Assembly (NCBI RefSeq): GCF_003334385.1
Contig: NZ_QOWN01000072.1
Strand: one strand, 5' to 3'
Length of the DNA: 7,350 nucleotides
Origin: Escherichia coli
Lineage (GTDB): Bacteria; Pseudomonadota; Gammaproteobacteria; Enterobacterales; Enterobacteriaceae
The notes beneath the pieces were generated by a model. The model saw only the letters and a list, made by a program, of their open reading frames with translations. It was not told where the DNA came from and ran no database searches. The position numbers and the translations under genes were made by a program. Shown one piece after another: positions 619-1,094 of this stretch (position 1 is its first letter; each line of letters starts with the position of its first letter).

Positions 619-636
619 TATCGCGTCCTCAACAAT

Positions 637-795
637 GAATTTTGTGATGCGGTGCCTGGTGCCTCCAGGTGACGTTAACCAGTTAACAATTAACGCCGGA
701 ATACAGAAGGATGCCCGTTACGCCCCGTAAAAGACCACTTTACGGTTTTAACTGTTCCGCGTGCGCATAGCCGCATTCACCGCATCACAAAATTC
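637..795. repeat. 18-bp perfect inverted repeat (arms 637-654 and 778-795) bounding a 123-bp segment rich in nested dyads
   Basis: Left arm gaattttgtgatgcggtg (637-654) is the exact reverse complement of right arm caccgcatcacaaaattc (778-795). The interior holds CCTGG-N5-CCAGG (656-670), three TTAAC repeats (675-694) and a CCGTAAA-N7-TTTACGG hairpin (724-744) followed by TTTTAA. Confidence 0.8.
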
Positions 796-1094
796 ACTTT
801 AAAAAGGGTGGCAGAGCAGTCACGGAGTAGAACTGATGCCACCAAATACTACACATGGGTATTGTGGCGGGGCTGTCACTTAAGCGTATGGTCAACCTGA
901 CGACCCGGTGCATTTTCTGGAGCAATGGAGGAAGCCCCAGCCATACTTACCGCCGCGCCATTTCGCGGACTGCCACAACCGGAAGTGCACGGTCGAAGAA
1001 ATTTAACGACAAGCCTTATATGCAAAGGAATCTCGCCGTGCGCTTTCGTGTTGTGTGCCTGCTTTTAACCACGTCAGGCGAGGTGGTTTCCGTC

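Follow-up and report, generated by a model that had tools for sequence, protein, structure and literature searches.

An STnc100/PasD-related RNA domain between DicF and dicB as the probable substrate of RNase III cleavage 3' of DicF

The DicF-dicB spacer and its inverted repeat

The window, the whole 7,350-nt stretch of Escherichia coli DNA that was analysed, is the early region of a lambdoid prophage and carries genes for a CI-type repressor, a Cro-type repressor, a CII-like activator and replication initiation. Identical DNA over positions 630-800 was found in E. coli RM10466, in a prophage whose integrase gene adjoins rspAB/ynfA. Two features frame the element studied here, both on the minus strand: the DicF small RNA gene and the dicB coding sequence (Table 1). 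As prophage products, DicF and DicB inhibit division of the host cell and change its metabolism, and how they are freed from one transcript decides when each is made. The gene order of the window, dicF, spacer and dicB, is that of the K-12 Qin prophage. From the positions of DicF and dicB together with the K-12 order, the element was identified as the intercistronic spacer between dicF and dicB in the leftward dicBF operon. The initial annotation had described the gap as noncoding; the gap contains the DicF gene, and the location of the element between DicF and dicB had been missed. Its neighbours are dicB, a small protein in the ydfD slot and proteins without assigned function. The element is present in ~85% of complete E. 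coli genomes, with 1-9 copies per genome.

Table 1. Features of the DicF-dicB interval, with positions numbered in the window
Feature	Position	Strand	Remarks
DicF small RNA, 53-nt form	806..858	-	Rfam RF00039 match at 806-857, 62 bits, E 3.9e-12; boundaries per MG1655 annotation
DicF terminator U-run	805-801	-	
P1 5' arm, closing helix	778..798	-	796-778 is the perfect arm, extended in the RNA by G797 (G-U) and A798 (A-U)
P2 hairpin (GCGGC...GC.CGC)	759..774	-	3 nt after P1; 99% paired, little variation within type A
P3 variable hairpin	725..745	-	hairpin plus T-run when read on the plus strand; lacking in K-12 Qin
P4 hairpin, 10 bp	671..697	-	built from three TTAAC repeats; 98.5% paired
P5 hairpin CCUGG-AGGCA-CCAGG	655..669	-	abuts the P1 3' arm; part of the family motif UCACCNGGAGGCACCNGGCACC
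P1 3' arm	634..654	-	654-636 is the perfect arm, extended to 634
dicB Shine-Dalgarno GAGGA	630-626	-	
dicB ATG	618-616	-	
dicB CDS, 62 aa	430..618	-	annotated dicB in the identical RM10466 DNA and in K-12; matches phrog_1251

The spacer is bounded by a perfect inverted repeat of 19 nt (636-654 and 778-796, 100% complementary, 123 nt between the arms), one base longer than the 18 bp first noted. When the window was shuffled 1000 times with dinucleotides preserved, no perfect inverted repeat (loop of up to 300 nt) was longer than 15 nt, in agreement with the earlier view that the repeat is improbable by chance. A search of the window with up to three mismatches allowed revealed no third copy of the arm (0.01 matches expected by chance). 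The left arm does lie close to the start of the leftward gene, at 17 nt from the dicB start codon and not the 19 nt given before. The dyad symmetries described between the arms were found as well, and the three TTAAC repeats, at 675-695, make up both strands and the loop of hairpin P4. The plus-strand hairpin and T-run at 725-745 are also present, but the pattern occurs at 1 site against 1.0 expected by chance, and K-12 and most relatives lack the hairpin; it was therefore not retained as a plus-strand terminator.

Several other features were observed around the spacer. On the minus strand, the dicB start codon lies within a small hairpin (AUAAUG-GAAA-CGUUAU, 598-622), which corresponds to a near-tandem repeat, GTATTAACGTTT / GTAATAACGTTT, at 590-614. 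At the far end of the noncoding stretch there are three direct copies of a 21-nt unit (GGATATCCCCAACAACAGGAA, 76% identity) at 1092-1112, 1126-1146 and 1207-1227, two of which fit a tighter pattern not expected by chance. The units may serve the leftward operon as operators or promoter elements, and a related sequence, GGGGAATAACCAGG, occurs in L145. Between the repressor gene and the leftward operon, two overlapping small minus-strand ORFs of 96 and 63 aa (2293-2774) resemble a RelE/ParE-type toxin and its antitoxin by sequence; in PHROGs they match only families of unknown function.

Fold and covariation of the minus-strand transcript

Folding of the minus-strand RNA from 870 to 600 gave a minimum free energy of -95.4 kcal/mol (z -4.70), which was equalled by 0 of 200 shuffled sequences; the plus strand folded less well (z -2.46). 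The minus-strand fold includes a 21-bp helix, P1, and the hairpins inside it. P1 consists of the 19 Watson-Crick pairs of the inverted repeat followed by one G-U and one A-U pair, is stacked directly on the 5-bp P5, and encloses a junction from which four or five hairpins (P2 to P5) emerge. Counted from the final U of the U-run in the DicF terminator, the helix begins 7 nt downstream; its other end lies 3 nt ahead of the dicB Shine-Dalgarno sequence. Its duplex has the length of double-stranded RNA of an RNase III site, about two turns or ~20-22 bp.

We gathered relatives of the element by scanning viral contigs for the P5 motif. The scan yielded two groups, bona fide STnc100 loci with GGUGAAUCCCCC and a second group, type A, with GGUGAAUGCGGC, from which 26 distinct sequences were aligned. 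Across the four helices, 95.5% of the cells in this alignment were paired, compared with 33-42% when the partners were slid by 1-3 columns. Both sides had changed at nine pairs, and the observed covariation score was reached by 0 of 500 shuffles, although such counts overstate independence because the compared sequences are related prophages. Compensatory changes were detected in P1, P4 and P5, including double changes from G-C to U-A and from U-A to G-C in P4 and a U-A pair swapped for G-C in P5. P2 has no compensatory change within type A because it scarcely varies among the 26 sequences, and its covariation appears only against STnc100, in which the strands are CCCCC and GGGGG. Long closing helices of quite different sequence were found in L020, L130, L227 and L129.

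The substitutions also distinguished the two strands. In the whole type-A set there were 116 G-U cells and 15 A-C cells; since G-U pairs are mismatched on the other strand and in DNA, this excess indicates that selection acts on the minus-strand transcript. Between K-12 Qin and the window, P1 differs by two substitutions, each of which yields a G-U pair. Among the possibilities raised at the outset, a regulatory stem-loop in the leftward transcript is thus the one borne out, by covariation, by the 116:15 ratio and by the better fold of the minus strand. These results indicate that the inverted repeat is to be understood as RNA structure, within the leftward (minus-strand) dicBF message of a Qin/Rac-type lambdoid prophage. 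The repeat is real and functional, yet it belongs to a processing region that had been described before, in an operon that is well studied.

Relation to the STnc100/PasD family

The Rfam STnc100 model (RF02076) matches the minus strand at 586-808 with 36.8 bits (E 2.4e-5), below its gathering cut-off of 47 bits, and the K-12 spacer, at 34.4 bits, is also below the threshold. No type-A locus is called at the gathering threshold, while the B-type, bona fide STnc100 loci score 56-161 bits. When type A and STnc100 were aligned jointly, a single consensus emerged in which P1, P2, P4 and P5 keep a common order; 11 of its 24 pairs have undergone compensatory changes. The shared consensus and these changes lead us to regard the spacer as a divergent relative of STnc100/PasD. 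Both have a closing helix that opens with GGUG and continues into AAU (GGUGAAU is conserved), and both have P2, P4 and P5 in this order with the invariant motif UCACCNGGAGGCACCNGGCACC.

The differences are equally clear. P2 reads GCGGC in the element and CCCCC in STnc100. The closing helix is a continuous 21 bp in the element but only 7-10 bp in bona fide STnc100. STnc100 has its own Rho-independent terminator, whereas the element continues to the dicB Shine-Dalgarno sequence and AUG, and the 3' hairpin of the STnc100 model aligns to the dicB start region. The element lies in the early-left operon after DicF, in contrast to STnc100, which occupies the late region near stx, tRNA or lysis genes (PMC12370729). 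As the element falls short of RF02076 in score and lacks a terminator of its own, we leave it outside the family and class it as a related domain whose closing helix is extended. Because the closing stems of most STnc100 relatives are only 7-10 bp long, the conserved core must have a function other than that of the long stem.

In previous work, the STnc100/PasD family is known from lambdoid and Stx phages, in their late regions (PMC12370729), and a 2026 survey of PasD/STnc100 does not mention DicF or dicB. Family members are expressed in EHEC, one of them verified by Northern blot, with 0 of 11 annotated copies adjoining DicF (PMC5331693), and accumulation of PasD is Hfq-dependent (PMC8550237). 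Expression and Hfq dependence, together with a helix order and conserved motifs like those of STnc100, would fit a spacer that is an independent STnc100/PasD-type sRNA gene with its own promoter, acting in trans through Hfq, in which the long stem has only a structural role. We consider this unlikely. A promoter-like site is absent from 400-1400 on both strands, and the domain begins just 7 nt beyond the terminator U-run of DicF. At its other end, where STnc100 finishes with a terminator, the dicB Shine-Dalgarno sequence and AUG come next, and the Rfam scores of both the window and the K-12 copies lie below the cut-off.

Short-stem copies of the element and copies of STnc100 were also seen inside phage tRNA gene clusters (L019 1504-1674, L043 6509-6696 and L011 7291-7478), one of them only 2 nt from a tRNA. 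Their closing stem of 7-9 bp, with a 5-bp hairpin against its 3' strand, loosely recalls, by analogy, the stack of the acceptor and T-arm of a tRNA. ManS (STnc500), an RNase III-processed sRNA, proved unrelated to the family of the element.

RNase III processing 3' of DicF

Two forms of DicF have been described for K-12. In the accounts of PMC5069750 and PMC9438474, which both cite Faubladier, Cam and Bouche 1990, the 53-nt form is attributed to Rho-independent termination and a 72-nt form to RNase III acting on the full-length dicBF mRNA. The 53-nt DicF annotated in MG1655 spans TTTCTGG to GCCGCCC. Counted from the annotated start, nucleotide 72 is the U of ...AAUUUUGU (...AAAGUGAAUUUUGU), position 254 of L237, and corresponds to window position 787 in a stretch identical to MG1655. 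This places it 12 nt into the 5' arm of P1, with 9 bp of helix above it; 787, 19 nt beyond the end of the 53-nt form, is not a mapped end but was obtained by subtracting the annotated 53 nt from the 72-nt size cited in these accounts, so it could be a few nucleotides off. With the reported 3' end placed inside the 5' arm in this way, the repeat very probably coincides with the RNase III site already known 3' of DicF. We therefore put at roughly three in four the probability that the inverted repeat is the substrate of the reported RNase III cut 3' of DicF and that the domain is a divergent STnc100/PasD relative with a lengthened stem.

The sequence of events would be as follows. After read-through of the DicF terminator, RNase III would cut ~12 bp up P1, which would release the 72-nt DicF and sever the dicB-ydfD message from it. 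The cut in the 5' arm would fall between 787 and 786 and, assuming a 2-nt 3' overhang, its partner between 644 and 643, so that the dicB mRNA would begin ~25 nt before the AUG. The excised piece would be a 143-nt core closed by a 9-bp stem. In vivo, RNase III cuts with a stagger, and the paired positions between the two cuts usually include at least one G-C or C-G pair (PMC6212723). The pairs between the predicted cuts, G788-C644 and U787-A645, are consistent with this rule. In a later study of the operon, the sole role given to RNase III is generation of the 5' end of a DicF species of 190 nt, and a full-length ydfABC-dicFB-ydfDE transcript was not detected. DicF is mentioned in the two transcriptome-wide RNase III maps as a citation only.

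The 5' end of the 190-nt species points to a separate upstream RNase III site, near 957-1087, in which the repeat arms are not involved. On the minus strand, 957-1087 can form a long irregular hairpin upstream of DicF, which folds no better than shuffled sequences (z -1.07). The reported cut, ~137 nt before DicF and near 995, would fall on the 3' side of this hairpin. A similar sequence precedes a DicF-like hairpin in Rac (L124) and also occurs in L145.

The K-12 dicBF operon has its RNase III site 3' of DicF at the same position as the element, between the dicF terminator and dicB on the coding strand of the operon. The spacer of K-12 derivatives is 86% identical over 171 bp, and the 5' arm region is identical. 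The copies differ in the P1 core, which is fully Watson-Crick over 19 bp in the window and contains two G-U pairs in K-12, and in the variable middle, where the window copy has an extra 13-nt hairpin (P3). The window copy also lies in a different prophage from K-12 Qin, with a RelE/ParE-like pair in its immunity region.

RNase III sites are well known in phage early mRNAs, among them the lambda N leader, sib and the intercistronic sites of T7. Like these, the element is a long intercistronic hairpin of an early operon, just upstream of a ribosome-binding site and proposed to be cut by the RNase III of the host. Unlike them, it is unrelated in sequence, its helix closes a junction of several hairpins where theirs is a simple hairpin, and folding lends no support here to an effect on how the downstream gene is translated.

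These results leave the current picture of the dicBF operon unchanged. They give the reported RNase III-dependent 72-nt DicF a concrete, conserved and mutable structure. What they add is modestly new: an explicit structure supported by covariation, the link to STnc100/PasD, and the testable idea that a 143-nt core is excised. The link suggests that a widespread phage RNA family is also found as an internal operon spacer. As for the excised core, double cutting by RNase III (787|786 and 644|643) might release an STnc100-type RNA as a third product of the dicBF operon, a tentative proposal that we think has the odds against it. The 9-bp stem predicted to remain on this putative RNA agrees in length with that of free-standing STnc100/PasD sRNAs, whose stems measure 7-10 bp. 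If the proposal were true, an STnc100-type regulatory RNA would arise by processing and not from its own promoter and terminator, and the phage RNA family would be a portable module with a conserved four-helix core.

The distribution of the long helix was then examined in relatives of the element. A second scan, with the 5' motif as the query and thus unbiased toward P5, yielded 120 distinct type-A copies, 114 of which were scorable. A closing helix of -20 kcal/mol or stronger was present in all 73 scored copies located immediately after a terminator-like hairpin and T-run (median -31.5) and in 13 of the 41 other scored copies (median -17.9), an association whose independence is again overstated by the relatedness of the prophages compared. 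In an intact lambdoid phage, the early-left transcript would be antiterminated and hence read past the sRNA terminator, and a cut just beyond the terminator would supply the 3' end of the sRNA and separate the downstream message. As termination cannot form the 3' end of the sRNA in an antiterminated phage transcript, processing must do so. Such processing is a sensible reading of why the long helix is found wherever the domain follows a terminator-type sRNA. The gene downstream of the element varies, from dicB to kilR in Rac, an isrK/C4 antirepressor module and small proteins of unknown function, and the element therefore goes with the sRNA slot and not with dicB.

The slot before the element is not always occupied by DicF, as seen in Rac (L124 770-830), L014, L020 and L058. 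Rac and other prophages carry a different hairpin-terminator in the slot (e.g. GGCGGCAUCAG...CUGAUGUCCGCCCUUUUU), followed by the same AAAG and the long helix. These hairpins are not called DicF by Rfam and may be DicF paralogues with other targets. A reversed order was observed in L126, L127 and L145, in which a short-stem type-A element precedes a DicF-like sRNA and terminator, a further structured stretch and an ORF.

A helix that ends 3 nt from the Shine-Dalgarno sequence could also act in cis on the translation or stability of dicB, the helix and the U-run masking the ribosome-binding site until RNase III opens them, as in the lambda N leader. In the 870-600 minimum free energy fold, GAGG pairs with CUUU of the U-run and extends the helix, and a helix of 28 pairs, interrupted by a single bulge, is possible on paper. 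Against such masking, the Shine-Dalgarno sequence is predicted to pair with the downstream coding sequence once more of dicB is included, and partition-function folding gave it a mean unpaired probability of 0.15 before and 0.16 after the modelled cut. The pairing between the U-run and the Shine-Dalgarno sequence is mostly G-U, and no variation able to test it was seen; in addition, the downstream gene differs among relatives. Control of dicB in this way is therefore improbable in our estimation, and cleavage by RNase III 3' of DicF remains the preferred account of the helix.

Readings of the repeat as a DNA-level element, namely a MITE-like insertion, a small invertible switch or paired operators for a looping regulator, have perfect 19-bp terminal inverted repeats and 1-9 copies in E. 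coli genomes in their favour, and are nevertheless highly improbable. The flanks (...CTCAACAA, element, CTTTAAAA...) have no direct repeat, hence no target-site duplication, and the copies occupy equivalent slots of lambdoid prophages, not unrelated loci as a MITE or other dispersed repeat would; 10,776 places were found with the flanks in the query and 10,383 with the element alone. When a 431-bp query spanning dicB, the element and DicF was used, 3,964 E. coli records aligned as one collinear piece and phage records did likewise; the inverted form was not seen in these records, which are assemblies and would miss a minority orientation, and there is no invertase or other recombinase gene among the neighbours of the element. 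As for looping sites, the arm changes keep RNA pairing and break DNA symmetry, the G-U pairs preserved on one strand would be meaningless for DNA sites, and the window has no further arm-like site, near the repressor genes or elsewhere. The RNA reading, with the repeat as the closing helix of a processed domain in the dicBF transcript, is preferred to all three.

Partial elements were observed in some genomes (L123 from E. coli FDAARGOS_433 and hits H58 and H94-H96). One partial copy consists of dicB, P5 and P4, followed by unrelated DNA, and another partial match starts exactly at the base of the helix (window position 636) next to a different downstream gene. Between prophage modules, the element functions as a boundary for recombination or deletion.
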